Below are positions 4,624-46,250 of a stretch of DNA of 64,000 nucleotides, piece by piece. Position 1 is the stretch's first letter. Every line of letters starts with the position of its first letter. Origin of the DNA: Geosiphon pyriformis uo1 (Eukaryota; Fungi; Glomeromycota); NCBI GenBank assembly GCA_016748015.1, contig JAAOMT010000694.1:310001-374000 (forward strand), in the 5' to 3' direction. The position numbers were made by a program, and so were the translations under genes. The notes beneath the pieces are model-generated. The model was not told the origin of the DNA. It searched no databases and saw only the letters and a list, made by a program, of their open reading frames with translations.

Positions 4624-4679
4624 TACCAACATCAACACCAACAAACTTAACAGCAAAACAAACAACAAAATCAACAACA

Positions 4680-20053: not shown

Positions 20054-20940
20054 ATAATCTTATTAAAAAATTTTTAGGAAATTGGTCTTGAATTTTAGTT
20101 TCTTTTTAATAATTTTTTTAATAAGTATTATTAATTTTTTAACTATATTTTGTGTACTTTTTTAACATCTTTTATTAAACAATTTTTAATGTTATAATTT
20201 TAATACTTTTTTTAATTAATTAATAAATGCAAAACAAATCAAATCAAATCAAAATAAAATAAAATAAAAAATTAATATTTTATTAATAGTTATTAAAAGT
20301 TATTATTTTAATATTGTTAATAGTATCGAATTAATATTATTGACATTAATAAAAAACTAATTAGGCTTGTAAAAATATAAATAATAATTTTATTTGAATA
20401 AAAATAGTTTTTAAAAATTAGATTATTAACTATAAAATTACTAAATAAAAATAAAATTAAATTGGTTTTTAATTTAATTTGTTTTTTTCTGTTTTTAATA
20501 CTTTTTTTGTATATACATAAATCCTTATAATATAAAATTTTTAAAATTCTCACAATTTTTTAAGTTATTGTTAGAATTTCTGGCATTTCTGAAATTTTGG
20601 TATTTTTACTAATTTTTCAGAAATTTTTGGTATTCTTAAAATTTTTAATATTATATATTCTAATAATTTATATTATATTATTAATTATTTATATTATTTT
20701 TTGTTTTTTGTTTTTTTTCTGTTTTTACTTTACAAGTAATATTATTTTCTTTTTTTTAATATTAAGTTCTAACAAAATTCATTAAGTTTTTTTTTAAATA
20801 AGTTTAAATACTTTTTTTATTATAATATTTAAAATTTTTGTATTTAATTTTTTAAATTGTAAGTTGATTATTTTTTTTGGTTGGTTTGTTGTTAATATTT
20901 CTATAGTTAAATGTAGTAATATTTTTTTTTAATATTATAA
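20054..20940 (-). mobile_element. Minus-strand Gypsy 3' end E (LTR ~20054-20741, PPT, ORF3 remnant)
   Basis: Reverse complement GAATTTTGTTAGAACTTAATATTAAAAAAAAGAAAATAA-TATTACTTG matches the ORF3/PPT/LTR junction of elements C and D. Confidence 0.7.
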
Positions 20941-20944
20941 GTAA

Positions 20945-23900
20945 AATCTAACTGTTATCTAATATATAAAACCAGATTAAATAGCTTAAACTAAATGTAA
21001 TTTATGCTCTTATTATATATGATTAGCTCTTTAAGCCAAATAAGACAATACTATATATTTATATAAACACATATATTACTGCTTAAACCAGAAAAAAAGA
21101 ACAGTTTGTATTTATTAAAACTAATTACAAAAAATTTAATAATACTAAACAATTAAATCATTATATTTAATAAAACAGTTTTTATACTATAAAACAAATT
21201 TAATATCAAACTACTATTCCTGACCAAACTAATTTTTTTTATATTTATTTTATATTTGAATCTTATAAGTTATATTTTTAAATAATGCAATTCTACTAAT
21301 TGTTTAATAAACTTAACAATAGTAAAAACCACTTTTTTTCTTTTTTTAAGGACCACAACAGTTTTTGGATACTAATTTTTTAATACAAACTTTTTACAAA
21401 CTACCATATACAAGTTTATATCTAGTAAATACATAGAAAAAGTTCTTAAACCAGCAAAAAAAAATAGTATAAGCATCTACTAATAATACTTACTATTTAA
21501 AAGTTTTTACTAATATTTTTTTGCAAATACTATCATTTTTAGCATAAATAAAGACATAATCTAATAGCTTTATTTTATTATATAACAAATACAATACACT
21601 CAAATATATTTTGTTATACAATTTTTTTCTAATTATTACTAACAATTATTTATATACAGCTTTTATTAAGTATATATGCAAATTAGCAAACTTTCTGTCA
21701 GTAAATTCAAAAAACATATGTGAATTAGAATGCCAAATTTTTATAGTAAATAACCAATTTATTTTTCTAATTAATATACTTAAAACTACATTATAATTAG
21801 AACTAACTTTTTAATAAACATAATAAATAAATCTATATAAATTACAAACAAAATAACAAATATTGTCAGATATAATTGTAATTTTAGTTATTATAAAACA
21901 TTTACATATTTTAATTAGCAAAAAAAAAAGAATAAACAGTTTTATTTACTATTATGTTAATTATAATATTGCCTAAAACTTTTAAATAATCTTTAATTTT
22001 TAATTATCTAACCAAGAAATTTTTATTTTTTATTAAATTAGCAATATATATTTTTTTATTCAGCATTAATTGCAAAAGTCTAACATAATACACATAATTT
22101 TAGACATATATATATCAAAAGCAGTTTAATTATTTAAATACAACATTACTGTACAAAAAAATAAAATATATTTTAAAAACAAAGCAATAGTCTGTAATTT
22201 AGCTATTATAAAAGACAAAAACTTATATATTTTAACATTAATACTTATATTTATAGCTGGAAAGTATGTTGTAGTTCTATAAGTAATCTTAACAGAATCT
22301 GTATTTTTAAAGACTTATATATGTACATCTTAATAGTACTTAACCAAATTTTATGTAAATATCTTTATATATCAAAAAACTTCTTAAAATTTAAAACATT
22401 TAAGTTATATAATCCACTAAAACTAGTAAAACCAATTTCCAAAAAACTTTTATTACACAAAAATTTTAATGTTAATCCAAATTAGTAAGACATAAAGTTT
22501 TTAAAATTTAATTTTTTCTATTAATAAAATGTTTTTTAATTTATCATATTGTTTTTTTTGTCCAAAAATTTGTTACTAAATACAACTTCAAATCATTTTA
22601 AAGAGCAAACTGAACTATAATACAAAGATTTTTCCAAAATATCTGACATCAAAAATTTACCAAAACTATAAAACACATTGGACAAATTGTTTGTTAAAAA
22701 TAAACTATTGCCCAAAAAAATTCTTACTATCTTAGCCAAAAAATTGTTTACTAAACTAATATGCAATCTGAAAAAAATTGAAAAAAATTGAAAAAACCTA
22801 CACCAAAATTTGTAAATTTAAAGATCTGTGATTAAACAAATATTTAAAAATATTCAAAGCATTAGAAAAATGATTACTAAAACCAATTTTCTTTAAACTA
22901 TATAAAAAAAATAATACAATGCTTTATTAAAAAAGGTTTGCAACAAATTAGCCTTAGATTTGAAACTTTTTTTGATTATTATATCTTATTTATAATATAT
23001 ATTTAATAAAACAAAACTAAATTATAACCAATAATTAGCTATAAATTACAAAACAGCTGACACCAAATAAGAGAACTGCTTATTTGCAATTGTTTTTTTC
23101 AATACTATATTGGCAAAAAACCTGATATTTGAATAAATCTAAGCCATATTGGGCTTAAAAAAACCTTATATTAACAAAAAAATTTCCAAATACTTATGCA
23201 ATTTATTTTTTTAGCAATCAAAATTAACAAGCTATTAATTTTTAACAAGACAGTTTTAATACTCTGGTTAATAAGAATAATTACTATTTTTTTATTGTTA
23301 ATTAATAACAAAAAACTCACTAATAATATCTAAAATATATTGTGTAAAAGTTTGGCTACTTTTAATTCAAATTGTGTTGTCAATAAAAGCATTTGCACCA
23401 AAAAATAATGTCTTTTTTTAACTACTTTTTATTCTGTTAGTCTTAATCACAAATCTAAAATCAATTTAGTATTTACATAAATGCTTATATTTTTTGACTT
23501 CATATAAGAGTAAATCATAAAAAATTCTTTAGAAAAAAAAAAAAATTTCATCTTAATTTAATTTATCATAAATTTTGTAACTATTTGAAAATTCAAAATC
23601 TGTTATTATTCTATTAATCTTGTTTCTATATTTATTGCCAAAAAATTCAATAAATTAACTACATATTTTAATATGCTGCAAGCTAACTTTTAGATAATAC
23701 TACTTAATTAAATTATAAATTTTGTAAGATTAACTATAGTTCTTTGTTTTTTTTTAAAGCATTTTTAACTATTAACTCAATAGCAAAATAAAAAATTAAA
23801 TTGAAGTACTCTTTAACACCAAAAAATTATTATTACAAAAAACACCAAATTTGTTATATACAAAAAAGATCTAATTAAAAAGAATTTTAGATAAAATTTT

Positions 23901-25865
23901 CTCAGTCATTTTAATTAATGCAATAAGTTAAATGTTTATTAAAATACTATCTTATTTATAAAACTTAAAAATTATCAAACTTATATTCTTTTTTAAAGAA
24001 CTAAAATATTGTCAAAAGATAAACAAAAATTTAACAAATCCAAAAAGCACTTTATTACAATTTTAGCACAATGTTTTTTAAATTTTATTTGATATTTTAG
24101 ACAGTTTAACAGCTTTATTATTAGATAGATTATTAATTACCAAAACCAATTTTTTTATGTCAATTTTTTTTATTATATTAGAAAAGACACTATTATCTAT
24201 ATAGTCTAAGAACATATATTAATAAGACCAAAAATTAAATATCTTTAAATATATAAACTGTTTTTTTGTTTATCTTTCTATAACTTTATCAACTTTAAGC
24301 TTTATTTTATTTAGTTTTATAACCAATTTTTTTTTTAACTATCAAGTAATTCAAAACAATCTTACAAAAAAACCACTTTAAAATACTTTTTATTATTTGT
24401 TCTTTGTTAAAACAAAAATTTTCTATATGCTATTTAATTGTTTTTCTGATGAATATATTTTTAGATGTCTTTAATTCATAGTATTTAAATTTTTTATATT
24501 TTTTTTTGACTATTTACAAATGTTTGATAATGTTTATTAATTTTATATTATCTTAAACTATGCTAATAACTTTAAAAGCCTTAGCACTATTAACAACCAA
24601 CCAAGTTTTAACAAGATAACCAATTTTAAAAAGATCTTTTAAGTTTAATTTCTTTATAATCTTAATAATAAGCTGTTTTAATTTAAAAAATCTCAATAAC
24701 TGTTTGTTTTTTAAACAATTATATTTATTATACCAATGTTTAGAAAACATTATATTAGCCAAATAAATTATAATTTTTTTTAACATTTTCCATATTGTAT
24801 TCAAGTTACCAAAATTTTTTACTTTTATAAACACACTCTAAATTTAATTTTTGCAGAAACACTAATATATAAACCCAAAACTATAACCAAAAGTCTATTT
24901 TTAAATAAAAAACAAACTAAAATTAATTGACTTAAAATTTTATTTATCTTTGAAACATATTAAACTAAAAAATTATTTATAATAATAGTTATATCAGCAT
25001 TGAAAAAATTTTTAATTAAACCAAATGTAAAAATCTGTATTTTATTGAATTTTTTTATAATCTATAACTTAATATTAAATCTTAATTTCGTTTCTATAAT
25101 AATAAAAATCATGTTATTTAAATCTATATACCAATAAACAATATTTTTTTGCTTGGCAGAAACATTAACACTTCTAATATTACATATAGCAATTTTCTAA
25201 ACAAGATTAATCATTGGTAAAAAGAGATGCTTAAACTCAAACCAATATTTTTTACTTTGACTAACAGACCCAAAATTATATCTGATAGATTATTTATGCT
25301 TATTTCTAAGCTAATAATATCCTTAGATAATGGAAAAATTTTTATTGCTATAGTTTTATTATTAGTAGTTATATTTAAATTTTTACTTATTATTGTATCT
25401 GCTTCTTAATCTTACAATAAAAAAGTTATTAATAGTTAAAATTCAAAGCATAACTGGAAAATTATTGGCCTGAATGGATTTAATTTTTTTGCCAATTAAC
25501 TAATTTGTTCTGTAAAATTAATAAAACTGTATTTTAAAACTGTAAACTTATTAATAATGTTTAATATAACCAGTAAAAAAGACTTCACTTTTAAAAAAGA
25601 GCCAACTTTAAATAAATTATTTTGCCCAGAAAAAAAAAATAAAAATCAAACATTTGTCTAAATTTTATTATCAAACAAAACTAAATAAGCAATAAAGTCT
25701 GTTTTTTTTATATAAGTTGACTAATTGTGTTTAATTTTAAACAATAATATGTTTTTTACTATAATCATCTAAATTTTTATTAGTTAAACATATATTAAAA
25801 ACATAACCAAATTGTTTGTACAGAACACAACAGACCAAAAAAAAACCAAAGTATTGAAATCTAAT
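20945..25865 (-). mobile_element. Old, extremely AT-shifted LINE related to the LINE at 28.5-35.2 kb (ORF2 plus the 3' part of ORF1)
   Basis: Collinear with 28550-~34000 (e.g. 20980-21065 vs 28567-28650; 23100-23220 vs 30715-30845), with an apparent deletion near 24830. Confidence 0.85.
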
Positions 25866-28200
25866 AGATTAAAAAATACTACTTCTTAATTTCTTAATAA
25901 ATTAATTAAAAATTTGTTTAATGTATAATAGTCTCTTTTAATTGCCTGAATTTGGTAAAAAATTTGATTAAATTGTCTAAGATAAGTAGTTATTATTTTA
26001 TAATTTTTCTGTTTTATTATGCTAAACTAATTTTATAATTTAATAAGCATATTAAAATCACAAAAATATTGTAAAAAAACGAGTTTAAAAGCAGTAAAGT
26101 TAGTTGGTTTCTCTTCAAAACTTTGGTACTATAAGTTTGTAGTTCCTATTAAAAAAAATAGTAGAACTTGAATTGTTTTAGTTTCATCTCAATTATTGGT
26201 ATTAATTACTTTTACAGTTTTTACAATTTTTATGTATGCATTGTTTTCTTTGCTGAAAAATTTTTTTAGTCTAACAATATTTTTGTAAATTATAATTTGA
26301 ATAATAAGAAGTAATTTATTTGTTAACAAAAAAAAATTAACAAAAATGTTATTGATTATTTTATTAAACTTGAAGCTAATTGTTTTTTTTTGTTAGTGTG
26401 GCCAATAGGTTGTAAAATAGTTGTTTCACCTAAAAGAATAATGGTTGATTTGGTTAGGAGTTTTATTAGAGGTTATGCTTAAAAGCAAATATTTCTGATT
26501 GAATTATTAGTTGCTGAAGTAAGACTTTCAAATATGGCTCTGTATTCTTTTAAGAATTTAATTCAAAGATTCTGGTTAAAGTTCTAAAAGTACAGGTTTT
26601 CAGAAGTTTTTAGAGTTTTTGCTTGTAATTTAATGAGTTAATTAAACAAGATTTTGCTTTTAAAGATCTGATAATATGTAAAAGTTATTAGTAAAAGAAA
26701 TTTTGATTTTTTATTAACTGTAAATATGGCTTTTTCTTGTGTAATTTGTGTATTATTATTATTAAAATTTGACTTGAATTCTTTAAAATCAGGTTTTAAT
26801 ATTTGTTTTTTTATTACTTATAAATATTACTTTTGGGTATATACCTCAATTTTTTTATTAATTAGAAAAAAAATTTTGACTATTGCTTATATGGTAATTA
26901 AAGTTAGAATATATTAGTAATTTTTAATGAATTTGCTTTTTAAGTTTTTTTGTATCTGCAGTTTAGTCTAATAAATAGTCAACTTTATTATATATATAGT
27001 GGCAAAAATCACTTTTAGTAATAATAATTTCTAATGGTATTTCTAAGTTTTCTTTGAAATACTAAAATAAGACTCTTTTAAACAGCAAGTGATTTTTTTA
27101 TAGTTCTAATAGTCATTATTTTGGTAAATTTTTTAGGTGCTCTGTCTTTATGGATTTTATAATCTTACAAAAAGCATCAAATGTTATAAGTAAACTTGGT
27201 AAGATATAGTAATAATGTTTGGTACTTTGAGTTTGAGTATAAAGAGCTTAAGATTTTTTCTATGAATATGTGAAACATATTAAGATTATTAGTCTCTAAA
27301 AGTCTGCTATAAATGTAAATTTACTTATGGAGTTCTTTGGTTATAAAACACAGAAAAATGATTTGGTTGTTTATAATTTATATATGTAAGCTATTTTTTT
27401 CAAGTTAGTTAAATACAGTTGCTAAAGTTTAGCAATGTCTTTTTGTCTTTCTGATAAGCTACTAAGATAATGTTAATATTTAATTTTAAAGAAAGCTTTT
27501 TTTTTTATCAGGCTATTATGAAATTTATTCTTAGACAATCAATTTACAATATTGCTGTTTTACAAAAAAATAAATAAAAGAAAAAATAAATAAATAAATA
27601 AAATAAAACAAAAAAAAATTAGTATTATCAATTACTATAATCAAAAGTAATTGGTTTAAGTTATTATGATTTTGAAATATTTTATGCTAAGAGCATTTGG
27701 TTGAAAAAAAAGATAAGAAAAATAATTAATTTAAGTTAAACACAAAAATCTATAAGTTATATATAAATAATTTGGTTTTGAATATTTTTTTTATTTGAGA
27801 TAATATAAGTATAAGATATAAAATATAAATAAAAAAATATTTATTCTTTTTTATCTGTTTGTTTTTCTTTTTTTTTGTTAAAACTACTTATTTTTGTACA
27901 TATTTTTTAGTTTTATAAGATTGTTTTTAATCATTTGTTCTTATTAGCTATTACTTATTATTACTGTTGTTGTTTTATTTTTTTATATTATAACTAGTTA
28001 TTTTATGTTATGGTTAGTTATTTTGTGCTATTTTATGTTATTATGTATTATCTTATATTATTTTAAGTTATTATATATTATTTTGTATTATTTCATATTA
28101 TTATGTTTTTTTTATGTTATTATATTTTAATCACGTTTTTTTAATAGTTTTTGAATTGGTTTTTTCTACTTAAATAATATTGCTAACAAGTTTTAAATAA
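25866..28200 (-). mobile_element. Decayed Gypsy 5' end: gag remnant (~25866-26320), leader and probable 5' LTR (~27250-28200)
   Basis: Reverse translation gives ..YQSFEEKPTNFTAFKL.. and TTYLRQFNQI, homologous to the gag at 1-170. LTR motifs shared with C/D; 10-bp TTATTTTATG array at ~28000-28130. Boundaries uncertain. Confidence 0.7.
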
Positions 28201-28634
28201 GACTTAAATACCAAATTTTTTTTTATTGTTTTTTTATTCTTATTTCTAATTTTTCATATAGTCTAAGCATAATAAATTATTTAATTTTAACTAATTTACT
28301 TTTATAATTAGTTTTGCTTCTAATTTTCTATTAAATTTTTTTTTGGATTTTAATTTTAATTTTTTTTTATAATTTTCAAATTCTGCTTTAAAATTTGGTT
28401 AAAAAAAAGATTTTTGGAATAATAATATATATTTTTTTATAATTAATATATTTTTTCAATTATATTATTTAAATTTCTTAGTATAATTAAAAGTTTTTTT
28501 TTTTTTTTTTTTATATGTTTAACGAGTGAGGTCCAAACGTAACCTAGTGCTATACATCATACAAATGATCTAAACTAGGTGCGAATCATGTGCTTTTTAC
28601 ATGTGACCAGCCACTCGGGCCAGTCAAGACTACA

Positions 28635-31600
28635 CTATACACTTATATGCACAGAAACCAAATCTTTAATACCCAAAAAAAATGGACAAAACTTACAAAA
28701 CCCAAAACCAACTCCAAAAGCCTCAGCCACCCCCAGCAATCTAACCACACCAGCCGAAAACACCATAGGCAAACCAGAAACTAAAACAGGAGCAGAGCCA
28801 TCATGCAGAATCAAACCGTGCTTTTCCATAAATGCCTGGTGTCTGGTGTAAACCAACCAAATATCATCCCAAAATGCAAGACAAAACTTGTGCACAAAGC
28901 CCACAATTTTTTTAGTACCCTTCTTTGAATTTTTAAAAACCAAGACAGACTCATGAAACCAATCATTAAAAACAAAGCCCTTGCACAGAGCAACACCAAC
29001 TCCAACTTCAGAAACACAAGAAGCCAAAGCCTGTAAGACACATGAAGAAGAGCGAGATAGACCAGAAAGAGCCTCCCAAGCTAAAGCATGAGCGCCCAAC
29101 AAATGAACATGGCCAATGGCATCCTGAGGACATAAAAAGACGTGATCTGAAGTCTTAACGTCACCACAGAAAAGACAGACCACACTGGGATATCTCCTAT
29201 CATATAAACACTTGTGCACAGCAACAGAAAGCCGATGATGGAGAGCCTTCATAAAGTAAGTACGACTGCCTGCCATGCGCTTGCTAGTAAAACTGGATGC
29301 CAAGTGAGAATCAGTGTGCCACATCATAGAAGACTTAGACCAATTGATATCAGCATACAAACTATCATCCACAACATGTGAACCCACTCCAACCTCCCAA
29401 TGAGCTTGATGAACTGACTGGAAAACATCACAAACAAAATATCTAGAATTACCAGAAACTGCTGTATCACCAGCACATAGAAAACGTTCACTGACTAAAT
29501 AAGGTAGGCGCCAAGCAAAGAGAGCAGCATTTTTGGCAAGCGTATCAGCATGCTCATTGCCCGAGACACCTGAATGACCTTTCACCTTAACCCAATTCAC
29601 ATCTAAATTTTTTTGACAAATGACGGTAGCAATGTGACAACGCTTAATTCAACAGTGGTTCCTGAAATCCAGACAAACCAGCGAAGACTCTGACTTACAT
29701 GCATCCAAAGCAGCTTGGCTATCCGAGAACAAGTCAATCAAATGAGAAAAAGAAACACACTCAAGGGCCAAAGCTATGGCTTGCAGTTCTGTTAGAGTAG
29801 AAGAAACCAAACCAGACACCCCAACACCCAAACCCAAGTTAATGTCCTCAAAAAAAACGGCAGCACCTGCTCTTACATCAACAGTGCCCAGACCAGAAAA
29901 AGATCCATCCGTATACACAGAAAGGCGGGCAGCATTAACAGTCAGCAAGGTGTCACGAACCACACCAAAATCATGAGAAAGACAAATATTAAACACAGCA
30001 TGACCATCTACCAAAGAAGAACTTGAGGAAAGAGGCACAACACCACCAAAAAAGCGAATGAAAAGATCAAACCAGAAAGGGACTGGGCTGCGAGGGTCTA
30101 GCCTCTTCCAACGCTTGAAGATCTCCCAACTGAAAACATCACCATTACAGTCACGAAGCTGTTCCACGAAAGCAATTCCATAACGCCTAAGCGAAAAGAT
30201 ATACTTGAAAAAACAGAATTCACCAAGAACCAAAGACATAAGAGTACTGCACCGACGACAAAAAGCACAAGCCAGAGGGCCTCCCAAAGACAAATTACAC
30301 CCAGAAAAGATGCAGACCACACCTGCCAAAAAATTATTCGAAAGACTGATACCGACACGAGCTGGAAACAGCAAGAGATGACGAGGACACCAGCTGAGAA
30401 CCTGGAGGTCATAAGACCTATGTGAAAACAAGCAACCCAAGACACCAGTAGAATTCACAAAAGCAATAATGAAGGCCGATTTACTTTCAGTCTGGATCTG
30501 TTCGAAAGTTTTTAAATTGTACAAAGAGAGGTGATGAAGTGCATTGCTGGGGAAATCATGTGGCAATCCAGACTTGGATTTCAAAATCTTGCATACCAAA
30601 GCATCCCATTTACTACAAACATCAACAGAAACAAAACTGAACTGAGTTCTGTAGCTGATGATAGGGAAAAGAACTGCAGAAACCAAATATGTACACTGTT
30701 TGTCTGAAATCGCCTTTCTTAAAATGAAATTCACAAAAAACTGTACATTAGTCTGAGCTTTAGCCAAGCTAGGCTTCGAAAGACTCTCAGAAAACAAAAA
30801 AACACCCAAATAGCGATGAAATTCCCCTTTCTTGGCAATGGAAATAGGCATGCCACTAATAATTAAACAAGGATCTGTTACCTGACAGTTGATAGAAATG
30901 GCCACCGTCTTGTCGTTATTCACAGAAATGTTATTGAACCTGAAAAATTCACTAGCAACATCAAGAATGTGTTGTGTAGCAGCCTGGCTGCTACCAACCC
31001 AAACAGTATTATTGATGAAAGCACCAGCAGCGAGAAATAAAGTCAATTTAGCTCGAGGATCTACTCGGCCTGTTTTGGAAATAAAATGAGAATTCAACCT
31101 GTAGTCACACACACTCTCCTGTCTCTTGACTTCACACAAAAGTGAATTATAAAAAATACGCCAGAGAAGAGGCGAAAAAACTTCTCCCTGATCCAGTCCA
31201 TTGTGGACACAATATCCATCAGTCAAGCCAAAGTCAGTCATCACCCTATTGACACGACCATTGTGAATACTGCCAAAAAATCTAATAAACCTGTCACACA
31301 TCTTGATTCTGACCAGACTCCTCCTAAGATGTTCCTAACCAACCAAATCATAAGCCTTGTATATGTTCTGTAAAACCAGCCAAAGTTCATGGTTCTTCTC
31401 CAAGGCATCCTCAATCACAGAACTGATAGCAAAAATGGGAGACTGCATCATCGTGCCTTTCAAAACCGAAAAATTGTCCCCACGAAGAACATCAAAAGTG
31501 CTGCAGACTGAAGAGATTCTATTTGAAAGGATCTTGGAGAGAATCTTGCGAGCCATCTCAATTAAAGCTATAGGATGGGTGTTCATGAGAACCTCTTCCC

Positions 31601-33323
31601 ATTTATATGGTTTAGGAATCATCGAAACCCAAGCTTCCCTCCAAGGCCCAGAAACTGATTCGCTAATCAAACAGAAATTCAAGAGTACTAAAAGCATATC
31701 CAAAACAGATTTGTCACAATGTTTCCATAATTCATTGGAAATACTAGAAAGACCAGCCGCTTTTCCATCAGGAAGATCCTTAACAACAGCTAACAACTCA
31801 TCAAAACCAATAAAACACATGACATCAGAGAAAGCACCATCGAACACGTAATCCAGAGGCCGATATTGGCAAGCCCAATCCTCAGATAAGTCAGACACCA
31901 TCTCACATTTTCTGGTCCATCCCTCCATAATTTTGTCCACCTTAGACTTAACCAAATCAGGCTCCAAAATCAATTCATCTTCTACAACCAGATGATCCAG
32001 GACCACCTTGCGAAAAGAACACTCCAAAACACTTCTGATAGTGTGACTCTTGTTTAGCTCAAAACTTTCCATCCTCTTACCAATAGCCTGCTTGATTGAG
32101 GATTCCTTAGCATGCTTGGATTCCAATAATTTGAAAGAGCAGTACGATTTCCTCACTTTGGCCAGTACAGAATGAATAAGATCAAAATTAGCACCTGAAA
32201 AAAACAGAGACTTAACCACCGACGCACCAGGAAAGTCGAGTCCATGCCATACCTCCAACAAAGAAGCAAAACTATCACTAGAAGCCAAATGCAAAGTCTT
32301 GACCAACTTAGAAACCAGCAGTTCCAGCTTGTGAAACCTAGAAGAAGTCTCAGTAAACATGCCATCAAAACCTTTGAACCACTTTTTCTTAAATGTACCA
32401 TCTGCCAAAAAAACCATAATCTTGCAAACAATGTTCCACATAACGTCCACATCTGAGAACCTTACTGCCACACCAAAAGCATCCGAGAACATAGAAACAT
32501 TAGCAGCTGAAGCAACCTTGAACTCCAACCACTTAGCTTCATTGGCACTTTTGACATCAAACTTCCAATGATCTTTATTCGCTTGCTTGTGAAGAGAATT
32601 CAAACACGTATCCAAGAGCCCACCCAGACCCAAATCCACTGAAACAGCTTGATGGTCTGTGTCAAAATGCTCACTGACATTCAAAACCTTATGACGCACT
32701 ATCGCATTGACAAGACTTGAGAAGACAAACACATAATCAATTGTTTTCTTAACGCCCCTAGAATTTTCTCAAGTGGGCATTTTTGCAGCTGGGCTGCCAA
32801 CTAAAGAATTGACCAGACCCAAATCAAAGCATCTTTTGAAACTTGCACTTTTATGAAAGCCGTCTTCATTAAAATCACCACCGAGAATGATGAAAAAAGA
32901 TTCGTTGACAGTCTTTGCAATGAAAAAATTGATTTCACCAGCTTAAGAAAACTGAACCACCGAAGAAGCACCAGCATAAAGCCCCAAAATTGACACAGAA
33001 AGTTTACTCTTAAAAAGTAATTTAATGGAAAGGAGCCGACCAGGCACCTTAGAAACCTTGCACACATGACGAGCCAAAGAAACGTTCATGATAACAGCAA
33101 CACCCGCACCCAAGTGACCAGAGTCCAAACCAGAAGTGAACACTCGGACACCGTCGAACTTGTCTGCAATCCACGGACGAACCCTACTCTTTAATTTCGT
33201 TTCAGTAACAATAGAGACTAAATTGTTCATTTTCTTATGCTATCTAATAATGTCTTCTTGCTTAGCAGGATTGTTTATGCCCCTGACATTGCACGTAGCA
33301 ACTTTCTAGACTAAACTGCTCAT
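28635..33323 (-). pseudogene. LINE ORF2 (APE endonuclease-RT-RNase H-CCHC), one frame, 6 internal stops
   Basis: TCNVRGINN, TETKL, LGGDFN, TIDYVF, TDHQAV (APE); KAYD, GLDQGEVFSPLLW, FINN (FVDD), YLGV (RT); YTDGS, ELQAI, FSDSQAA, KVKGHSGVSGNEHAD (RNase HI); CLFC..DHVFLC. Confidence 0.95.
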
Positions 33324-35113
33324 TGAGTAAGAGGTAGAGATACCGAAAGTGCACCTAAACTGTCCATTTTGGCCAAAAGGCCCAGAACCGTTTCCATTAG
33401 ACACTTCATGCTGTCTTCCAGCTTAGACACTGAAGACATATCAAAAGACACCACTCCCGCGACATTTCCACCACTAGTGAACACACTCGAACCCTCACTC
33501 ATTACTACATCTGCCCCTTGATCCTGTGATAAAGAGGTCACCAACGGCTGACATCCAGGGCTAGGCTGGGAAACCATTGGCCCAAGTGCATCCAACCTCT
33601 TAGCCAGCTTACCAACTTGCTCCGCGAGGCTGGCGAGACTGCGCTCAAGAGCAGCAAACCTATCATTGACTTCCATCGTAACTGGTTGGGATGGCTTCAT
33701 CTCTGAAGAGGAGCCATTTGTTACCACAACTTTCTGACCAGAGAGGGGGAGCGAAAAAGACCCGCGAGCAACCTTTGCCCAAGAGAGACCACCAAAAGAG
33801 ACTGGACAGGCAACCAGAGTCGAGCGTTTGGCATAGATGGTTGCCAGCCTGCTTTTATCCGTATCCGAGAAAACCCTATACAGTGAACTACTAGAAGACA
33901 ATTTCCCACCAACTGCACAACCCAATGATGTGTGACCCAATTTCTCACACTTGGCGCATCTAGCAGAAATAAGATAAGACCAGCGGAGATTGGTGTTTCT
34001 GAGTACTGGCGTGGTCCCCACAGCAGCATCCAATGATTCAGCAAAGTTGAAACAAACAACAGCACACTTGGCCCGAGCATACGTAACAGAATGACGATCA
34101 ATGACGCACATTTTCTCACTCACAGATCTAACAAAGTCCCAGATATCATGAGCATTGGTTCTCATCGGCAACGTATAGAGCAGTGCCCTATGTTGGTCCC
34201 TAACATCCCATGCTTCCTTGTCTGAATCAGCCCTAGCCATACGCACAGCATTTTTCCTGATTAAGATGGACCACTTAGCTGCAGCCAAATCAGCTTAATC
34301 CGATTGTTCAAATTCCACCACTGCCTTCTGCCACAGCCCGATTAACTGCATCTTGATCGTCCTAATAACTCCAAACTCGGATAGTGCAGCATGCACAGCC
34401 TCAGCCGATGTTCCAACCGGAATTTCTTTCACGACCACAGCCCGATCTAATTGCCCAGATGCTTTTTTGAGATTGGCGTTTACTAAGATCTTCGCATTCG
34501 CAGCTTTATCAGTAGCTTTCATTAGACTCGATTCGGAAGTGAATGTCGTCCTGATGATTCCTGAGAATTTTGAGGGGGTAGATGCCCCCCCAAAACCATT
34601 GATTCCAGAAAACAACTTCCTCATCACCACAAGTTTTTCCTGAGAAGATTTGCCAGCCACTTTATCCAAGCCAATATCCAATGCGAATGATTTCTTAACT
34701 AAAACATTGACCAAATTTCTCACAGAAGGAGGGAGCTCAAGAGGAGCATCCGAGAGAACACCATCATCACTACCATTTTTTGAGAAGTCAATTTTCTCCA
34801 ATGGCTTGTCCAACGCCTTTTTGGTTTTAATCTTCAAACTTGTGGGCATCTGATCATAATCTCTACCAGCCAGAGCTCCACCTTCACTATAATCAAAGCT
34901 GGTTTCCTCCACCAGACATTCCTCTTCCATATCAATACTTTCAGACTCAGTAGTGTCCCCAGTCTCCGAACTCCATAAACAAATACCAGAAACTTCAGCA
35001 GCAACCCTTCCATTATCAACACCCTCTGTCAACACACCTTCCTTCCTCTTTTTCCTTGATGTAACCGCTTTAAAACCACTCTCAGAACCAGAAACTTTAG
35101 CAGTCTTTTTTAT
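33320..35113 (-). pseudogene. LINE ORF1 (nucleic-acid chaperone)
   Basis: ORFs 34295-35035 and 33320-34288 are in one frame split by one TAA; probable start ATG>ATA at 35113. Contains RKKRK, RRM-like segments, CCHC knuckle CAKCEKLGHTSLGC and a heptad coiled coil. Confidence 0.88.
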
Positions 35114-35279
35114 AACAGCAATAACAGAGCCAACAGTGGCCTCGTAATCGAAAAATGGTTTTGATTTATCGTACTGAATGGTAAAAAACTTCTTTTAAAA
35201 AACTTTTGACTCTTTTTTGGGAATTTTGGACGATAGAGAGAAAGAAGTTTTTAATATTTTTATTTATTTTTTTTTAATG

Positions 35280-36470
35280 TTTTATCAGCAAAACAAATAA
35301 TTATATATTTATTATATTCATATATGCTTAAGTTATAACCAATAAAACAAATTTTTCTATTATATAATATTAACATTTTAAAAATATTATAAATAGTAAT
35401 GCCAATTAGTAAAATATACAACAAAGTCTAATACTAATTTCTAAATACTTATATCTGTTTGTTTTAAACAATTTTAGTTATATTTACAAAGTTTTTTTCT
35501 ATGAGCATCAATCATTTAACTATAACCAAATTAGCAATATTAGCAAATTCAAATTTAATCAAAGTTTTTTACCAAAAACCAATGAATTGTATCTTAATAG
35601 ACATAATCTTACTAAACTTAGAAAATACTGATTCTATAACCAGTTTAAAAAGATATATAAAGATTTTTTTAATAATTATTTTTTAATCTGTATGGCTGTT
35701 TATTTTTTTAATATAATGAAAAAAATTTTTATAGTCATTAATTTATCTTTAAAAGTTTTGTTAAACATTACAGAAAACTTAATATTTAACACAAAAAATT
35801 TGACTAAATTAAAATTCTGTTTTTTTAAAACATGTAATCTAACTAATAGCAACTGTTGAAAGCCAATAAACTTAAAAAATAAAAACATCAAAACATTGTT
35901 ATTATTATTATTCAAATTTTTAAAAAAAAGAATTTTTAGTAGACAATCTATATTGTACATCTTAATATGTATTTTTTTTGGAATAGTTTTGTCTATTTTA
36001 TTGTTAATCTTTAAAGTATTTAAGTTAGCATAATTAGTTTCTTTAGCAATTATATTTTTCATGTTTTTTATATTTAAAATTCTATTAATACTACTGGTTT
36101 TACTAACTGTTTCACTATTTTAAGATTTTTTTTGTTTAATGTTGTTAAATTTTATATCAGTAATGCTAATAAAACTAGTAAACATATTAATTATTTTATT
36201 ATTTATGTTAAATATGTTAAACTTTTTAGGCTTTTTGTAAAAAACACTATAAAAATATATATTCTTAATGTGTTTTTTTTTATGTTTGAATAAGTTTTTA
36301 AACTTTCCAAATTAGAACTAAAACTATCAGCAAAAGAGTTTATTAGTTTTATTATAACAAAAAGTAATATGTTAAAAGAAATAACTAAAAAAAATAAAAA
36401 AAATTATTTTTTTGACAACTTTATGATTTTATTATAATTAAAGAATCAACAAAAAAAAGAGTTTTTTTTA
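35280..36470 (-). mobile_element. Decayed 5' fragment (ORF1 N-terminus) of another related LINE
   Basis: ORF 35700-36062 parallels ORF1 (IIAKETNY ~ LVEETSF; VKFFVLNI ~ KKSFALDI; KDKL..IKIFF ~ QEKL..MRKLF). Confidence 0.7.
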
Positions 36471-36499
36471 AGATTTTAAATTTATTTATGTTATATTTA

Positions 36500-39400
36500 A
36501 TTATTAATTGTTTTTTATTAATACTTATATAATTAATTAATTTGTTTTTTTTAAAAAATTTTAAAGAAATTCTTAAAGTTTATATTTGTATTTATTAAAA
36601 AATTTTATAAATAACAACAAATTTTAATAATAATATATTTATTCTAACTATAAATAATTTTAATTTTATAATCTTAAATTTAACTAATTTATTTAATTAA
36701 ATAATAAAAACAATTAATGTAATTTTAATTAAATATTGTTTTAAACAAATCTTAATTTTTTTATTTTTTAAAGCTCTGATTACATCAAAATTAGTTTTTA
36801 TAAATTAAGTATTTTTTAAAATAAGCTTTTAAATTACTTATAATATTAAAATATAGAAATTAGTTTAATTATAGTTTTATGTTTTATTTAGTTAAATAAT
36901 ATTAAACTTTTTTATTATTTTAATAACATAATCTATATAATCTAGAATTATTTTGTGATATAATTTCTTAATTAATTTAAAACTACTATTATATTTAAAT
37001 TTAATATATTAAAAATCACAAATTTAATTTGATATTTTTATAATAACTGCAAATTATTAAATATAAATAAAATTAAATAATAATAATATTTTTATTTTGT
37101 TTTATTATATTATTACAAATAATTTTATTTGTATTCAATTTTTTAATTTTATTGATTATATATTAGCATATTATTAAGATTTTTTATTTTATTTTATTAA
37201 GAACATAATTAATTTGTTTATGTATTGCTTTATTTTAAATATTAAATAAATATACTTTAAATAAACTAAGATAATAAATTTTATTTGTCTGTTAATTAAA
37301 ATAAAATACATAAATATTTTGTGTTTAATTATAATTATAAACAATAGTATTAATATTATAATAATTATCTTTATTTTTTATCATAAAATATTTGTTTACT
37401 AATTTTTTTGTTGTTTTATTATTTTTGCTGTGATAATTTCTTTTTAATTTAGTTTTAATTAAATGTTTTTATATTTTTTTTTATAAATATCATAATATAA
37501 ATCATTTTAAAAATATTAATTAGTATTATTATTTACAAAATATATTATATTTTAAAAATTTTAATATGTTATTGTTTTTAAAATCTGCAATAAAATTATA
37601 ATAAATTAATTTTTGATTTTTAATTGTTAAAAATATAAGCAATTAAATAATTAGTTTATATTTTTACTAAGATTTAATAATTTATAAATTTTAGTGTAAT
37701 TTTTTAAAAAAAAATTTATAGCCATAACAACAAATTATATCAATAATCATTTTAATTTTTAATTATAAATATGTAGTATAATATTTGTTATTAAGTAATT
37801 TTTAATATAATTAATTTTTAACATATTAATATATGTTTTTTAATAAAATAATATAGTACAATTTTAATAATAATAATTTTGTTTATTAATATGTCTTTTT
37901 TTAAAATATTGACTAGTAATTATTTTTTTGCTATTTATGTTTTTAATTAAGTAATTAAAAATATATTTTATTTAAATTTAAAGAAAACTTAAAATATTTT
38001 ATGTAATTCAGTAAACTTTTCTCTTTAAATTTTTTTTGAATAGTTATAATTACAACTTATTTCCAAAAAATGAATTGCTTTTTTGTATTTAATTAAACAA
38101 TTATAATTATTATTATTTATATGCAGATAATTTTATATATTAATTTTTATTGTTTTGTAATTTTTTTATATTATATTTAACAAATTAAATAAGTTTTATT
38201 ATTATTACACAGTTTTCTGGCAGTAAGAAATTAGATTAGATCTATAATAACTATTGTTTTATTTTTATTGTGCTGTCTATGTTCTTTTGGGGTTTTTTTT
38301 TCATCTTTTTAACATAACAAAAAATTAGTAAACCTAACAAAAAAACAAACAATATATTGATATACCTTAATTATATTATAAAAGCTCTATATTTTTTATA
38401 ATTTTTTGTATTGTTGGATCTATTCATTACTTGTTTTATGTTTACTTTACAAAATATCATTTTTTTTTCGACAGAATTAACATAAAATATTAATATCTTG
38501 TACAATAAAAATTTTATTATATTATTATTTATACTATTAAAATATATATACATATTTTTTAAAAGTTAATAAATGCTCAAATATTCTATTCTGTTCTTGA
38601 TATTTGTTTATGTTGTTATACTAATGTCTAAAATGCTATTGTATTTAATATCTTCAAATATTATTTTAAAACTTATACAAATTTTAAGATAAGATAAAAA
38701 AAAAGTTTACAGTTATTAATACCAATATAACAGATTGTTTATTTAAATATATTATTTATCTTTTGTTATTTAAATAATTGTTTGTTCTCTTTTTGCTGTT
38801 TTTTATTACTAGTTAAACTATTAATTTCATAATTTCTAACTTAAATACTAATAAAAATCACGTTTTTTTTGTGATTACAATTTTATTATCTCAAATTATA
38901 ATATCTAAAATAATGATATTTATTATTTTTTAATTTTGTTTGCAAAAAACTGTTGTATTATAAAAGAAAAATTTAATAAGATCTAGTTTTATAGAAGTAA
39001 ATTCAATATATATAAAATAATTAAACTTGATTTTACTATTGTAAAATATTATACTGTTAACTTGTATAATAAAAATTAAATTAAGTTTTTTTAAAAACTC
39101 TGAACCAATAAATATATTAAAAAAATTTTGTATAGTAATAGTTTGTAAATACATGTTTCAAAATTTGAGTTTTGACTAAATTACTTTGTTAATTATCAAA
39201 AAACATAGGATTTTACTGACAAGTTTACTTTAATTACTTGTGTTTATAATAATGTGATTCTTAATTAAACTAACTAAATGCCTAAAACTTACATAAAAAT
39301 TTCAGATTAATTTATTATATAACTTATAATATTAACTAATATTAATTTGCTTAGATATATAGTAACAAAAAATTCCAGTATTTTATTAATATAATGTAAA

Positions 39401-42400
39401 ATTTTTATATGGCTATTAACTAACTTGGATGCTTGTTATAAAAAACACAAGATTTTTAAATAAATTTATGTTCTAAAAATTACTAATACTTTTGTTATTT
39501 TTTTGATAATCATAATATATTTAGTTTTATGTATATTATTAACTTTTTTGCTATCACAAAATATTTTTTGTAACAAATTTGATAATAATTTTGTTAATAA
39601 TATTTTGTCCAAAAAGATGATTTATATAGTAAATTTGATTTTTTATTATTAAAACTGTAAAAATTGATGGTTTTTATATATAATAATTTAACATATTAAG
39701 TAAATAAAATAATTTATACAATTTTTCTCTTTTAAAGCTAATTTTAATAAATAGATTATGACAATTTACAAGAGAGAAAATCGAAAATTTTAATAAAATG
39801 TCTGTAAAAAACATCATAAAATAATTATTACCTAAATTTGAAACAGTTTATAATATTTTTAACAGATTATAGAAATTATTATTTTTTAATAAGCATTCTG
39901 ATTTTATCAAAAGCCAACAATATTTTTAATAAATATTTATTTAGCTTTTCCAACATAATTACAAGTTTTTTATAGTAAGCTGTTATTTTTTTTAAATGTT
40001 CTTAATTTAAGATCTTTTGATATTATTACTGTTTATGTTTTTTTAAATTGAGCTTGCAAATATTTTATTTGATAACAAACTGAAATTTTCAAAATTGCTA
40101 AGTTTTATCTTATCTTTAATATTGTTCTAAAAACTTTTTTGCAAGTTGAATATATTATTATAAATATAACTAATGAGAATATTAAATATATAATTATATG
40201 TTTTTTTTAATATTTTCTCATAAAATTAAAGTTGTATGTTTACAAACTCTAAATACTTGTAAAACAAAGCCACTAAAAAAATAAGCTTTTAAATATGTTT
40301 TTTTAGTGAGTTTATTAGCAATAACCAAATAATTTAGATAGCTGTTTAATTTAGAACTGTATAAATAAATATAAATAATTTAAATATTTTTTTTAACTGC
40401 TAATTTTTACAATAATTTGAACTTTTTTGTCTTGTTAATTTGTATTAGTAATATGTAAAAAGCATAAAACTGCTGTAGTATTTAATTTATTGTGTACTAT
40501 TTTAAATAATAATAAAAATATTAATATAATTTTTTTAAGATTTTATTAATGTACTTTTAAATATGCTTTTTAAGATATTATAATTTAGATTAAATTTTTG
40601 TGTATTGACACTAATTTACAAACCAGATGCTAAAATTTTTTCTATAAAATCAGCATTAAAATAAAAAACAAATAAATAAGTCCAATTTAACTAGTATTAT
40701 AAATTGTATTTTGAAATTTTATTTAAAAAAAATCTTTATTTTCTATTATTTAACCAGTTTTGCTATTTTTTTTAATATATATTACAATATATTTAAACTA
40801 TTTTTCTTATATTATTTTTTATTAATTCATACTGTTTCTTGTTTTTTTTAAAATAAGTCTATAATTTAACTCAGCTATATTTTAACTTTACCTAATTAAT
40901 AATATCTAAATGTTTCTTTTAAATAGTATTAATAACTTTCAAACTATTTTTTCAACAAATATATATTTATTGTTTGCTTATTTTATTGTGTTTTAAAGTA
41001 TTCTGTATAAATTTTATTGGTAATAACATCAAGATAATTTTTTAAATATTGAAAAATAAATTTCAAAATTTGTTTTTAGTTTATGTTGTTAAGTTTATAA
41101 ATATAAAAAAAAATATATAGTGTATATATTTATATTTTGTTGTATTTTCTTTTATTATGAAGTATATTATATTATAAAATAATTGTATACATTAAATTAA
41201 GTTGTCAAATTATTGTTTTTGTAATTAATATTTGATTATATAGCATAAAAAATACTATTTTTTGTCATTTTAAGTAATATATTTATAATAACTAATAGAT
41301 TTAATTTTACAAACAACAATTTATAAAGTATATATTCACTAAAACTATTAATAAATATTCTTATACTTTAGTTATTTTAATAAAATATTATTAAATATAT
41401 TATTATTTAGACTTAAATGTAAATTTGTAAATAATAAAATTATGCTTTATTTAAATATTTTTGAAAAGTTTAAGTATTATTAATTTTGTAAATATATGAA
41501 ACAATCTTTTTTTTTGCTTTTTTTTTAAAATATTTTTAATAATATTATAATTTTGTAATTTTATAATGATTTAATTTATATTAATTTTATATAAAGTTAA
41601 ATGTAATTGAAATTTAAATCAAATAAAGCTATTAAAATATTACATTTTTTAATTATATTAGTTATTTTAAGTTTATATAATCAAATTTTTACTTTGTTTA
41701 ATTTTGTTGTAATTTGTTTTAAATTATATTTAATCAAATTAACAAATAAATACAATGCTTTAGTTTAAAAAAAATTATTTTAATAAAAGTAAGCAAAATT
41801 TATAAATTATTTAGAACTTATTTTATCTAAAATTAATAAGATTAAAACAAATTACTTAGAATAATAAAAGAAAAAAAAGCAATATTGTTTAATATATATT
41901 CAAATTTAATAACAAAATAATTTTGTTAAAAAACAACTATTGAGAAAACAATTAATTAATAATATATTAAGATATAATTTAATATATAAAAAATTATAAC
42001 TTATATTAAAAAAAATACTAAACAATAAAATTATTAAAACCAAATAAAGTTAAATAACTATTTAATTAAATTAAAATTAACTTAATAGAATTTTTGTTTA
42101 TTATTATCAAAAACAACTAATTTATAATAATTATTTATTTTATTAAATAACAAAAAGCCAAAATTATAAAAAGAGTTAATGTAGAATTAATAACAGAATT
42201 TATTTATTAAGTTTTAATTTGTTAATATAAATATTTAAAAAATTTAATATTAAACCAATATATATATTTTTTAAATAACATATTAATAAAATTAAGCCAA
42301 AAATTTAATTATTGTTAAAGTTTTTGAGTTTTTATAAAAATAAATAATTAAAATAAATTAATATTATTTTGCATTAAATTATTTAAAGCTATTATTACAA

Positions 42401-45400
42401 ATTAAAATAATATGCTAATACATAACAAAAAAACAAATATTATATAGTAATAAAACAATTAACAGAAATAAATTATATTTTGTATAAATTTAATATATAT
42501 GTTTGTTTTATAAATATCTTAATTGCTAATTTTCACAAAAAGTTTTTAAACTAATATAGTTTTATGTTTTAATCAAAATTTTTAAAATTCAATAACAAAT
42601 ATTTTTTGTATTTTTTAGTAATTATTTATTTAACAATATTTTTTAAAAGTTAACAACATATATATTAAGAAAAAAAACTAAGATTTTTTGTTTTACATGT
42701 TTAGAATAAAAGATATAAGAATATTAAGTTATTAATTCTTAGACTATAAATTTATAATTAAATTAATAATTACATTATTAACTTTATTTTAAAATTAGAG
42801 TAGCTTATATATATAACTAAATATAATTGAATAATTAAAAATAATTGAATTATAACATTATAATATACTTATTAAAAACAACATATCTATAAGTTACAGT
42901 TATTTTAAAATTAAAATTAAAAATAATTTGCTCAAGTTTGAATTTAATAATTAGTAAATATAACTGATAAATTTTTTTTAAGCTAATAATTCTAAAAATA
43001 TTTTATTATTTGTTTTTAAATAAAACTTAAAGCAAACAACCTGAATAGATTGCAATATTAAATTTATGTTAAAATTAACAAATTTGCTGTTTTAAATGCA
43101 CAGTTATCAAAAATAATTATCTTAATTCTATTATTAATTACTTATATAATATTATTTATTCGTGTAATACTACTAATGCAAAAATACAAAAAAAATTTCC
43201 AAAAAATTTGAAGCTAGAAACTAGTTTTTAAAGCAATAAAAATATAGTGTTATTTACAGTATATTAAATTTTTACACAAATTTCACAAATATTATCAACA
43301 ATTTTGTTTAACAAAAAACCAAAAAAAACAATATTTTGTCTAAATTAATTTTTTTGTAAAAACTGTTTTATTTCATATAATGTCCAATATTATTAAAATT
43401 ATCTATTGTAATATATGTATTTAAAAAATTTCTTCAATTAAAAATTATTTAAAATTTTAAAATTCATATCAAGTTACATATACCAATTAAAATAACTCTA
43501 ATTTTACTCTAATCGAATGCAAAAAATTGATATTAAGAGCTTTAAAAATGCAAATTTTGGGAAAAAACTTATTTAATTAATGTCAAATTTGAACTAAATA
43601 TTTCGAAAACTAATTACTAATGTTAAAATTACAAATAATTACAAAATTTGGTTTTAAAATTACTATTTTTTGCAATAATTAAACTAAACTTGAAATCAAG
43701 CTTAAATAAAAAAAATCAATATTAAAATCAAAAATATTAATTTTGAATATACAAATAATATTACAATTTTTTTCCAACTTAACAAAACAAAACTAAAGTA
43801 TGCCACTGAAAACAATAAAAATTACTTAGTCACTTTTTTTTGCTCAAAATTACCAATTTTATTTTGGTTTCAAATTAAGAAAATTTTGCCCAAACCAAAC
43901 ACAAAAAAACTTAAAGTTTTGGTTTAATTAATTATCTTAATATAATTATTGAAAATTTTGTTATAAAATTAAGAAATTTTAATTAGATTAGTTTTAAATG
44001 AATTAGTATTAGTTATTAATTTATAGTGTAATAAAAATATTGAAAAAATATTTTTGTTCATTTTATTTTTAAATAAAAGAGATTTGTATTAGTAAATTGT
44101 ATTTTTTTAAAATATTTAAACTTCTTAATTATTATAAAATGTATTTTTTAAGTTTTATTTTTTGCAAAATTTTTAACAAATTTTTAAAATATTTATTGCC
44201 ATATAGTTTGAAATAATACATGATTTAATTATAATATTTAGTTGTATATGTAAATTATTACAAATTAAGTTATTGATAAAATAAAAGACAAAAATAATTA
44301 ATATAAATAATAAGATAAGAAAAATAATTTTATGCTAATTTTCGGTTCAAATAGATAACAGATAAACGAGAAACTACAAATAATGTAAAATTAATTAAAT
44401 ATGTTAACAATTTAATAAATATAATTAATTTGAAAAACTCAGTTGTTAATTTTTCCAAAAAAATTTGAAAATAGAAATAATGTTTATGATTTTTAACAAA
44501 AAATAATACATTGTTATAATTTTAATAATTTTAAAATTTCAGCAGTTATTTATTTAAGAAATTATAAAAGCAAGTTTTTTATTTATTAAGTTAATTTTAA
44601 CAAAATACAAATTAAAAAAAATTAATTGCAGAAACTTGATTTCTATCTTCTTTGAAATTTATTGCCTCAAAAAAGAATTGTATAAAAGATATAAGATGTA
44701 AGGTTTAAGGTTTTAGGTTGGATGTGAAAAAGTAGTTTTCTTCTGGAAAAAATTTTTTAATTAAATTCCCTGCTAAAATGCAAGAAATATTTAAAAAATA
44801 ACAAAACCCAAGTAAGGCCCTTATAAAATGCCTATCTTAATCTATTTGTTTAAAATTTTGTTTTTATAAAAATTTCTTTGTCGAAATTAATGAAGTTTTT
44901 TGATTTTAGGATCCTGTTAATTATTTTTTTAAAAAAAACAATGTAATACTTTACTTTCAATTAAGAGCATGTTATTACTGGAAAGTTATATTGAAAAAAA
45001 AAATTTTGAATGTGGAAATTGCCAATTATTATTTGTTGAAATTTATTTTGCAGCATAAAATTTTTTAGAATATTTTGTACTTTAAGTTTTATTAAAAAAT
45101 TTAATTTTTTACCAAACTCCTTAGATTTGCTAAAAATAATAGTATTATAGTAAATTTTTCTATTCAGTTACTATATATTAATTATATAGGATAATATTTT
45201 ACTTTAAAAATAAATTTTTGACTTGATTATTGACTCAATTGTTTAAACTTTTTTAGAAAAATTTAATTAACATAGTCTAAAATTTCTAAATCTCTTTCTT
45301 ATTATTCCAAATTTTATTTATTAAATATAATTAGCTTTAAAATAAATAAAAACTATTTGTAATTTTCAATCTTTGTTGATTAAATTTGATTTTTTTTATT

Positions 45401-46250
45401 GAATAATTTACAATATTTAATTCAAAAGCTCTTTTTTTTATTATCTCACTTATTTTATTGTTTTTAATCCTTTATATATGTTTTTATCTTTTAGTTTCAA
45501 ATTTAAATTAAATCAAAAATTTATTTTTAATTAACTAATAAATCAAAATTAATATTATTTAAAAATTTGGTCTTTAATATACAATTTTAAAAGTATTTAT
45601 AGAAAATATGTAGATATATTTTAAATCACATTTTTTATTTGTTTATAATTAATCAAAGTATTTATTAATTTTATACAAAAATAATATTTAATTATCAAAT
45701 TTTCATAAAATATATTTAGAAAGATCATTCCAAGCTTGTTTAAATACAATTTAAGTTCTGGATAATTAAATAATAGTGTGAAATATGACAAAAATCATAA
45801 CTATAAAAGATTCTCTGTTAACTTTGGAATCATATAGAATGATATTTTTTGTGTAAAATATTTTCTATTAAATCCTTATTGGAATTGTGTGAAAACATTT
45901 TTTCAGAAAAAAAAATTTTTTTAATATTTTAATTTTTATAATTTGACTTGTTTTTTATGATGTGTTTTAATTATTGCAAATTTATATTGGAATGTAAAAT
46001 TACAATTTATTGTATGTCCAGAATAGATTTTTTATACATAAGTATGATAATAGTTTATTATTTAAATAAGAGCTTCTTTTAATTTTATTAAGTAAATAAA
46101 TGAATAACTAAATAACACAATTAATTCAAAAAATTGATAATCTAGATATTTAATAGATAAGCTAATCAAAAAATTTAGAATAAAAGGAATTAGAAAAAAA
46201 ATATGAAATTTACACTTTAAAAAATGAGGATATTTATATAATATAATAAA
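36500..46250. other. Hyper-AT-rich tract, probably end-stage mutated repeats
   Basis: Nearly no G/C, no credible ORF, no simple satellite periodicity. Confidence 0.55.

Follow-up and report, generated by a model that had tools for sequence, protein, structure and literature searches.

C>T decay of a LINE family in Geosiphon pyriformis, RIP-like in effect and probably rooted in cytosine methylation

The LINE element and its premature stops

A window of 64,000 nucleotides from the genome of Geosiphon pyriformis uo1 (Glomeromycotina, Archaeosporales; contig JAAOMT010000694.1, positions 310,001 to 374,000 of the forward strand) was analysed, and all positions given below are those of the window. 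Long terminal repeat elements are stated to form 41.2% of this genome in the available text of PMC11952901. The element in question was a full-length long interspersed nuclear element (LINE) with two open reading frames (ORFs) and a poly(A) tail, which spanned 28494-35200 on the minus strand. The ORF1 frame extended from stop to stop over 33320-35194 (minus strand) and was interrupted by one internal TAA at 34297. ORF2 (28635-33323, minus strand; 1562 codons) contained six internal stops at Trp or Gln codons, namely TAG at 33308, TAG at 33242, TAA at 32945, TGA at 32771, TAG at 31337 and TGA at 29651. The 3′ untranslated end and the poly(A) tail occupied 28494-28634 on the same strand, with a T run at 28494-28512 on the plus strand. 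Reverse transcriptase (RT; PF00078) and RNase H (PF00075) domains were found in ORF2, and its N-terminus was endonuclease-like as judged by eye. The stop of ORF1 and the start of ORF2 overlapped as ATGA (33320-33323, minus strand), suggesting termination-reinitiation.

No frameshift was present in ORF1 or ORF2. The preliminary description of this DNA had reported seven stops without a frameshift, and their positions were confirmed in both frames. Five of the stops had been assigned to former Trp codons and two to former Gln codons, and the other copies of the family bore this out. Trp was carried by 9/10, 45/45, 44/45, 60/61 and 45/45 of the other Geosiphon copies at the five sites, and Gln by 50/50 copies at 32945 and 3/5 at 34297. 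Among the single-base routes that yield a stop in the LINE, 120 of 775 are C>T or G>A changes, and all seven stops had followed such a route (P=2e-6 under equal rates; P=0.0024 if C>T is four times as frequent as each transversion). The RT site FVDD, from which the FINN of the window copy had been derived, was the family consensus (V in 91/103, D in 79/102 and D in 83/102 copies). The motif was weak evidence for mutation outside CpG, since two of the three changed G follow a C (TTC ATC AAT AAT); these two changes may be CpG events.

The LINE family was present in high copy number, and 21,252 contigs of sequencing run X1 aligned to the element; seven contigs of run X2 and none of run X3 did so. 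Among the best 120 of 253 and the best 120 of 321 matches to two LINE pieces, all homologs were G. pyriformis gene models; one of the models, P0121, was 100% identical to an ORF2 piece and represented the window's own gene. Several hundred annotated Geosiphon 'hypothetical proteins' (among P0001-P0379) were decayed copies of this family. Introns had apparently been predicted around their stops, and gene counts were inflated. None of 239 candidates among viral contigs was a relative. Nine distant LINEs with 25-34% identity occurred among metagenome contigs; eight of the nine carried stops, and their observed/expected (o/e) ratios for CpG were 0.26-0.93. They were too distant for polarising the changes. 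One of them (L002, 2246-5029; 25% identity) was stop-free over 937 aligned residues and had a CpG o/e of 0.77, unlike the Geosiphon copies.

Mutation spectrum, sequence context and strand symmetry

The mutation spectrum was read from the gene-model proteins of other LINE copies. Residues were counted if a single, unique base change could produce them from the codon of the window, in columns where the window matched the family majority. P0121, high-scoring segment pairs (HSPs) with less than 55% identity or fewer than 30 residues, five residues at HSP ends and locally poor stretches were left out. Columns with fewer than 20 copies (fewer than 12 in a separate set of 127 proteins) or less than 60% consensus were also left out, which lowers the CpG rates in the main counts. 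The main set comprised 238 proteins over 1037 ORF2 columns. The separate set was drawn from the best 150 of 2791 matches, and ten of its proteins were identified by name, all from Geosiphon.

Radical C>T changes at non-CpG sites amounted to 1900/18585 (0.102 per site) in the main set, and conservative ones to 0.099 per site. The equality of the two rates indicates that the LINE copies were neutral after insertion. The rate of radical T>C changes was 161/40674 (0.0040 per site), and those of radical transversions were 0.0021 for C>A, 0.0030 for C>G, 0.0022 for T>A and 0.0013 for T>G. Because alignment noise and changes that predate insertion are contained in the background rates, the C>T ratios are lower bounds; differences between subfamilies contributed conservative T>C and transversion changes. 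In the 127 proteins, the rates were 0.113 (C>T), 0.0040 (T>C) and 0.0012-0.0045 (transversions), and ORF1 gave 18/233 for C>T against 1/1705. Hence, the proposed broad-context C>T/G>A excess was upheld for a non-Dikarya fungus by the comparison of copies with the consensus (0.102 vs 0.004 for T>C), and it was larger than first described. The outcome that would have refuted it, an excess confined to CpG, did not occur: non-CpG C>T alone stood about 25-fold above T>C.

The DNA contigs aligned to the LINE agreed with this spectrum: 1539 places showed C>T/G>A and 824 the reverse, against 420 with transversions and one with an indel, counted at no less than 5% of depth, a threshold that hides private indels. 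The C>T/G>A places fell on 2861 C+G sites, just 278 of which were in CpG. In eight listed DNA pieces (2386 bases), 439 substitutions and 2 gap letters were found. The window copy was young by the background clock, which accounts for its lack of frameshifts. The 25 repeat pairs within the window, mostly old or of different families, gave 1559 transitions, 1154 transversions and 285 gap openings, and the closest pair gave 58, 13 and 1, respectively.

The order of the contexts was CpG far ahead, then TpCpA, then the other CpH. At CpG-containing Arg codons (66 columns), 2587 of the 3600 family cells (72%) and 39 of the 66 columns in the window copy were mutated, at variance with the earlier statement that many CpGs survive. 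Arg was retained in 521/1801 cells where the window codon was still CGN. The per-cytosine hazard was about 0.6 at CpG vs 0.11 elsewhere, a difference of about 6-fold. The codon-pinned rates outside CpG were 0.139 for CpA, 0.104 for CpC and 0.087 for CpT. A 5′ T raised the rate about 1.5-fold (0.112 vs 0.073-0.096; P=1.5e-9), with TCA at the top (0.177) and all NpCpH contexts at 0.07-0.18. A unique protection of GpC was considered and dropped, because ApC was as low (0.073 vs 0.076). After the removal of CpG-suspect columns, the codon-internal contexts (H>Y, C>Y, M>I, G>D/E, P>S, S>N, R>K and L>F) still had rates of 0.06-0.17, and codon-pinned non-CpG changes were present at most columns. The classic indices of repeat-induced point mutation (RIP) were negative for the LINE (CpA o/e 1.31, TpA o/e 0.53, TpA/ApT 0.64).

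Strand and clustering tests were carried out on 217 copies, 21 of the 238 sequences with fewer than 150 columns being left out. The shares of C>T and G>A were binomial within copies (chi2 175, 210 copies), indicating no strand bias. Adjacent hits were not enriched in the 217 copies (581 vs 615±21 expected), and successive hits were not strand-coordinated (2158 on the same strand vs 2114±28). In the window copy, G>A changes (47) and C>T changes (42) were interleaved (runs P=0.91). The non-CpG load per copy ranged from 0.03 to 0.25, and the CpH load rose with the decay of CpG (rho 0.54, n=192), as expected if both have the same cause. This pattern fits steady independent events rather than the editing of cDNA or single passes of RIP.

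Gene controls and the origin of the C>T excess

The gene control was a Lipase_3 gene at 62401-63985 (minus strand; CpG o/e 0.78). The preliminary description had regarded the gene at 62-64 kb as intact and single-copy-looking; its frame was open, but it belonged to a multi-copy family. Twelve other Geosiphon Lipase_3 proteins matched it, DNA paralogs of at least 85% identity aligned with it, and gene model P0240 was 100% identical to the window sequence. The lipase paralogs showed 14 GC>AT transitions, 20 reverse transitions and 61 transversions over 202 columns, whereas the LINE, with eight random copies per column, showed 364, 86 and 112. The GC>AT share of single-step changes was thus 14/95 vs 364/562 (P=2e-20), and the C>T skew was absent from the lipase family. 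The GC content was 18% in the lipase introns (43/235) and 25% at 4-fold sites (45/177). A second lipase-like copy, identified from motifs at 48850-49900 (minus strand), was frameshifted, with a CpG o/e of 1.10 and 33% GC. The lipase genes, together with two flanks poor in genes, had CpG o/e values of 0.78-1.28, whereas repeats had 0-0.5; the LINE stood at 0.42-0.51 and most of the older repeats at 0.0-0.17. For the DNA at 54-64 kb, a mixture of genes and relics, the counts were 180 for transitions, 88 for transversions and 23 for indel places. From these gene-family and composition controls, as distinct from neutral unique DNA, the C>T hypermutation is likely to be repeat-specific.

The older repeats of the window were poor in GC, and retroelement relics had fallen to as little as 6-14%. 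Nested relics at 11000-28400 had GC contents of 0.17-0.21, CpG o/e of 0.06-0.10 and GpC o/e of 1.35-1.88. From 35300 to 46000, an AT-rich tract that contained relics of retroelements (e.g., 41863-42306) had values of 0.14, 0.17 and 2.10, respectively, with a TpC o/e of 0.71. In the relics at 20-28 kb and 35-46 kb, GpC was 1.88-2.10 and TpC 0.70-0.71; at 52-54.5 kb and in the lipase gene, TpC was 1.05-1.10, i.e., not depleted. When the rates measured in the LINE were run forward, GpC o/e rose to 1.6-1.9 and TpC fell to 0.7, matching the old relics, whereas a flat CpH rate failed to yield the GpC excess and the TpC loss (one run each). The tract at 35300-46000 is likely to be the end state of the C>T process.

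Judging from these sequence patterns, the C>T decay is probably driven by the deamination of 5-methylcytosine (5mC) after methylation of transposon DNA at both CG and CH. Silenced transposon chromatin would be methylated by a CG maintenance enzyme of the DNMT1/DNMT5 type and by an all-context enzyme of the DIM-2 type. The 5mC would then deaminate spontaneously or with help from a methyltransferase, and the T:G mismatches would become fixed. The C>T load would exceed that of replication errors, so that young copies would gain stops at Trp and Gln codons and catalytic D>N changes before frameshifts, and old copies would finish at 6-15% GC. The effect on transposons is RIP-like inactivation, for which a selected defence and a by-product of silencing are both possible. 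Heavy CH methylation is predicted for Geosiphon transposons. Ages of transposable elements (TEs) read from divergence landscapes would be inflated, and hundreds of the annotated 'hypothetical proteins' would be accounted for as dead LINE fragments.

Related fungi offer partial parallels. In the available text of PMC8298701, 32.5-49.5% of all cytosines are given as methylated in Rhizophagus irregularis, and arbuscular mycorrhizal fungi (AMF) are stated to have DNMT1, DNMT5, DIM-2 and RID; we infer that so high a methylated share would need CH methylation. The TEs of R. irregularis are described as CG-methylated in the accessible part of bioRxiv 2021.03.30.436303. Phycomyces, with DIM-2 and DNMT1 (PMC11258239, PMC7862722, as excerpted), is reported to have genome-wide methylation of 3.4% at CG, 0.5% at CHG and 0.9% at CHH, enriched in TEs, which carry CG and CHH methylation (PMC11258239). 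The TE-restricted CG loss of Geosiphon agrees with these systems, and the ratio of CG to CH methylation in Phycomyces resembles the Geosiphon mutation ratio. However, the excerpts describe methylation and not a mutation spectrum, and the Geosiphon excess is unusually large.

Several observations weigh against methylation-driven decay. C>T at CpG stood about 150-fold above T>C in the LINE copies. Plain 5mC decay usually gives a 10-20-fold excess, so that passive decay alone would require a very low background or an absence of T:G repair. The latter, or deamination aided by an enzyme, therefore has to be kept in the model as a serious candidate. The C>T load was unlinked to background changes (rho 0.08; low counts, 275 events), and this decoupling could reflect episodic action. 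CpA was the highest non-CpG context, and the forward run overpredicted the loss of CpA in old relics (0.72-0.82 vs 1.07-1.15). Moreover, the spectrum was read from proteins and not from DNA, and the lipase controls were older and under selection. The stretch at 58-62.3 kb, which looked unique (two 2.2-kb contigs without differences), also had just 16% GC, with a GpC o/e of 1.75 and a CpG o/e of 0.73; it is possibly an ancient relic that escaped from methylation.

In a stronger version, which is considered tentatively and as rather doubtful, a RID- or DIM-2-type methyltransferase would actively deaminate transposon cytosines in all contexts, a RIP-like defence predating Dikarya. If so, the standard CpA/TpA RIP indices would miss such enzyme-driven deamination. 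If the process were also premeiotic like RIP, its scars would document cryptic sex in Glomeromycotina and its timing. A parallel to the methylation-driven decay set out above is known from Zymoseptoria tritici, for which the available text of PMC8016269 describes Dim2-dependent mitotic C>T mutation in methylated repeats: more than 95% of the changes are C>T, they are confined to repeats and 5mC, no sexual cycle is needed and TEs are inactivated. More than 98% of those changes occur at CpA and CpG is spared, whereas in Geosiphon CpG was about 6-fold ahead and CpA, CpC and CpT were all affected.

True RIP, i.e., a premeiotic, homology-sensing mutator of the RID/Masc1 type preferring CpG over CpA over CpH, with a light effect in each of many sexual or parasexual cycles, is an unlikely source. 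It would account for the near-pure C>T changes with almost no indels, for CpA and TpCpA as the top non-CpG contexts and for the decoupling of the C>T load from background changes. RID is stated to be retained in AMF (PMC8298701), and an excerpt of PMC3318451 reports a TpCpG-targeted, RIP-like mutation in Pucciniomycotina. The latter shares with Geosiphon the CpG-centred C>T changes of TEs and the preference for a 5′ T, but sites that match TpCpG only in part show no elevation there, whereas every NpCpH context was affected here and a 5′ T added only 1.5-fold. RIP in Neurospora crassa and other Pezizomycotina (RID/DIM-2) likewise turns C:G into T:A on repeats and leaves stops without indels and AT-rich relics; Geosiphon differs in lacking a strong CpA bias and strand-coordinated tracts and apparently in sparing gene paralogs. 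The CpG lead, the mild CpA preference and the absence of strand bias and clustering in the 217 copies indicate that this is not RIP of the N. crassa type, and the RIP label of the preliminary description fits only in part, although many light rounds could blur strand signals, which limits the strand test. RIP of the N. crassa type targets any duplicated DNA above about 80% identity, including genes, whereas the lipase paralogs of at least 85% DNA identity kept CpG and showed no skew, which may weigh against RIP, depending on how long and how old their homology is. According to a passage of a 2026 review, RID is assigned to Ascomycota only (PMC13297926). In the available text of PMC12543289, N. 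crassa-like RIP is found in few ascomycetes, and 7/7 Glomeromycetes and 3/3 Endogonomycetes are scored no_rip; Geosiphon is absent from the species table seen there. The accessible part of bioRxiv 2021.03.30.436303 reports that RIP signatures went undetected both in Gigaspora margarita and in Mucoromycotina.

The hypermutation of Geosiphon transposons is thus RIP-like in effect and lacks two defining features of RIP. A mutational brake on TEs exists in Glomeromycotina, although the group has been reported without RIP signatures, and CpA-based indices miss such patterns. In the Geosiphon lineage, active RIP can be set directly against passive decay of 5mC, a comparison that would in turn bear on cryptic sex. 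A literature search, with the Geosiphon genome paper outside its coverage, returned no report of transposon C>T hypermutation for Geosiphon or Glomeromycotina. A 2017 article by Clutterbuck reportedly concerns, by its title, CG deficiency and TE hypermutation in 'some lower fungi', and it may bear on novelty.

A genome-wide C>T mutator, for instance through weak uracil or mismatch repair, with selection preserving the genes and CpG methylation as an extra factor in repeats, has a still slimmer chance than RIP. All non-coding DNA of the window was AT-rich, including the introns and 58-62.3 kb, and a recent shift would barely mark composition. However, the LINE rates imply an equilibrium GC of about 5%, far below the 18% of the introns, the 25% of the 4-fold sites and the 33% of the lipase copy with frameshifts; the retroelement relics alone fell to 6-14%, the changes among lipase paralogs were unskewed, and TpC was depleted in the two large relic tracts and not at 52-54.5 kb or in the lipase gene. 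The editing of retroelement cDNA or single-stranded DNA by an AID/APOBEC-like deaminase is very improbable. The 5′-T preference would suit it, but cDNA editing predicts one direction and clusters per copy, whereas both directions were equally frequent and unclustered, CpG dominated and damage kept accruing in old relics; the symmetry of the strands already refutes it in large part. Just as improbable is a young neutral element that undergoes ordinary CpG decay, the changes outside CpG being an artefact of alignment or subfamilies. CpG was indeed the strongest target, and subfamily differences do add conservative T>C changes and transversions, but the reading is refuted at the protein level by the codon-internal contexts (0.06-0.17, at most columns, vs 0.001-0.004 for other radical changes).

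Further features of the window

Gypsy A, a retroelement at 1-6060 on the plus strand, encoded gag, protease, dUTPase, RT and RNase H in one frame (1-4623), followed by integrase; protease, RNase H and integrase were recognised from motifs. Its 4.6-kb frame had been described as free of indels, and no frameshift was present over 1-4623, with 15 internal stops; further on, the integrase had a frameshift near 5219. The CpG o/e of Gypsy A was 0.12-0.16. Its knuckle read CHYCGIPEY*KRDC, in which the ancestral His follows from the CCHC motif and Gly and Trp are probable. The dUTPase (PF00692) and a Cys-rich insert lay between protease and RT (1500-2778, plus strand), in frame with gag.

The lipase-like copy at 48850-49900 carried the motif GHGLGG and had two apparent frameshifts around GEPRFG, due to either a pseudogene or an assembly error. 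The nucleophile motif of the Lipase_3 gene (63088-63110, minus strand) read GHGIGG, and 9/11 aligned paralogs read GHAIGG. Most members of this expanded Lipase_3 family of Geosiphon may lack catalytic activity. Among the aligned paralogs, GHSIGG was kept by P0244 and P0247 only.

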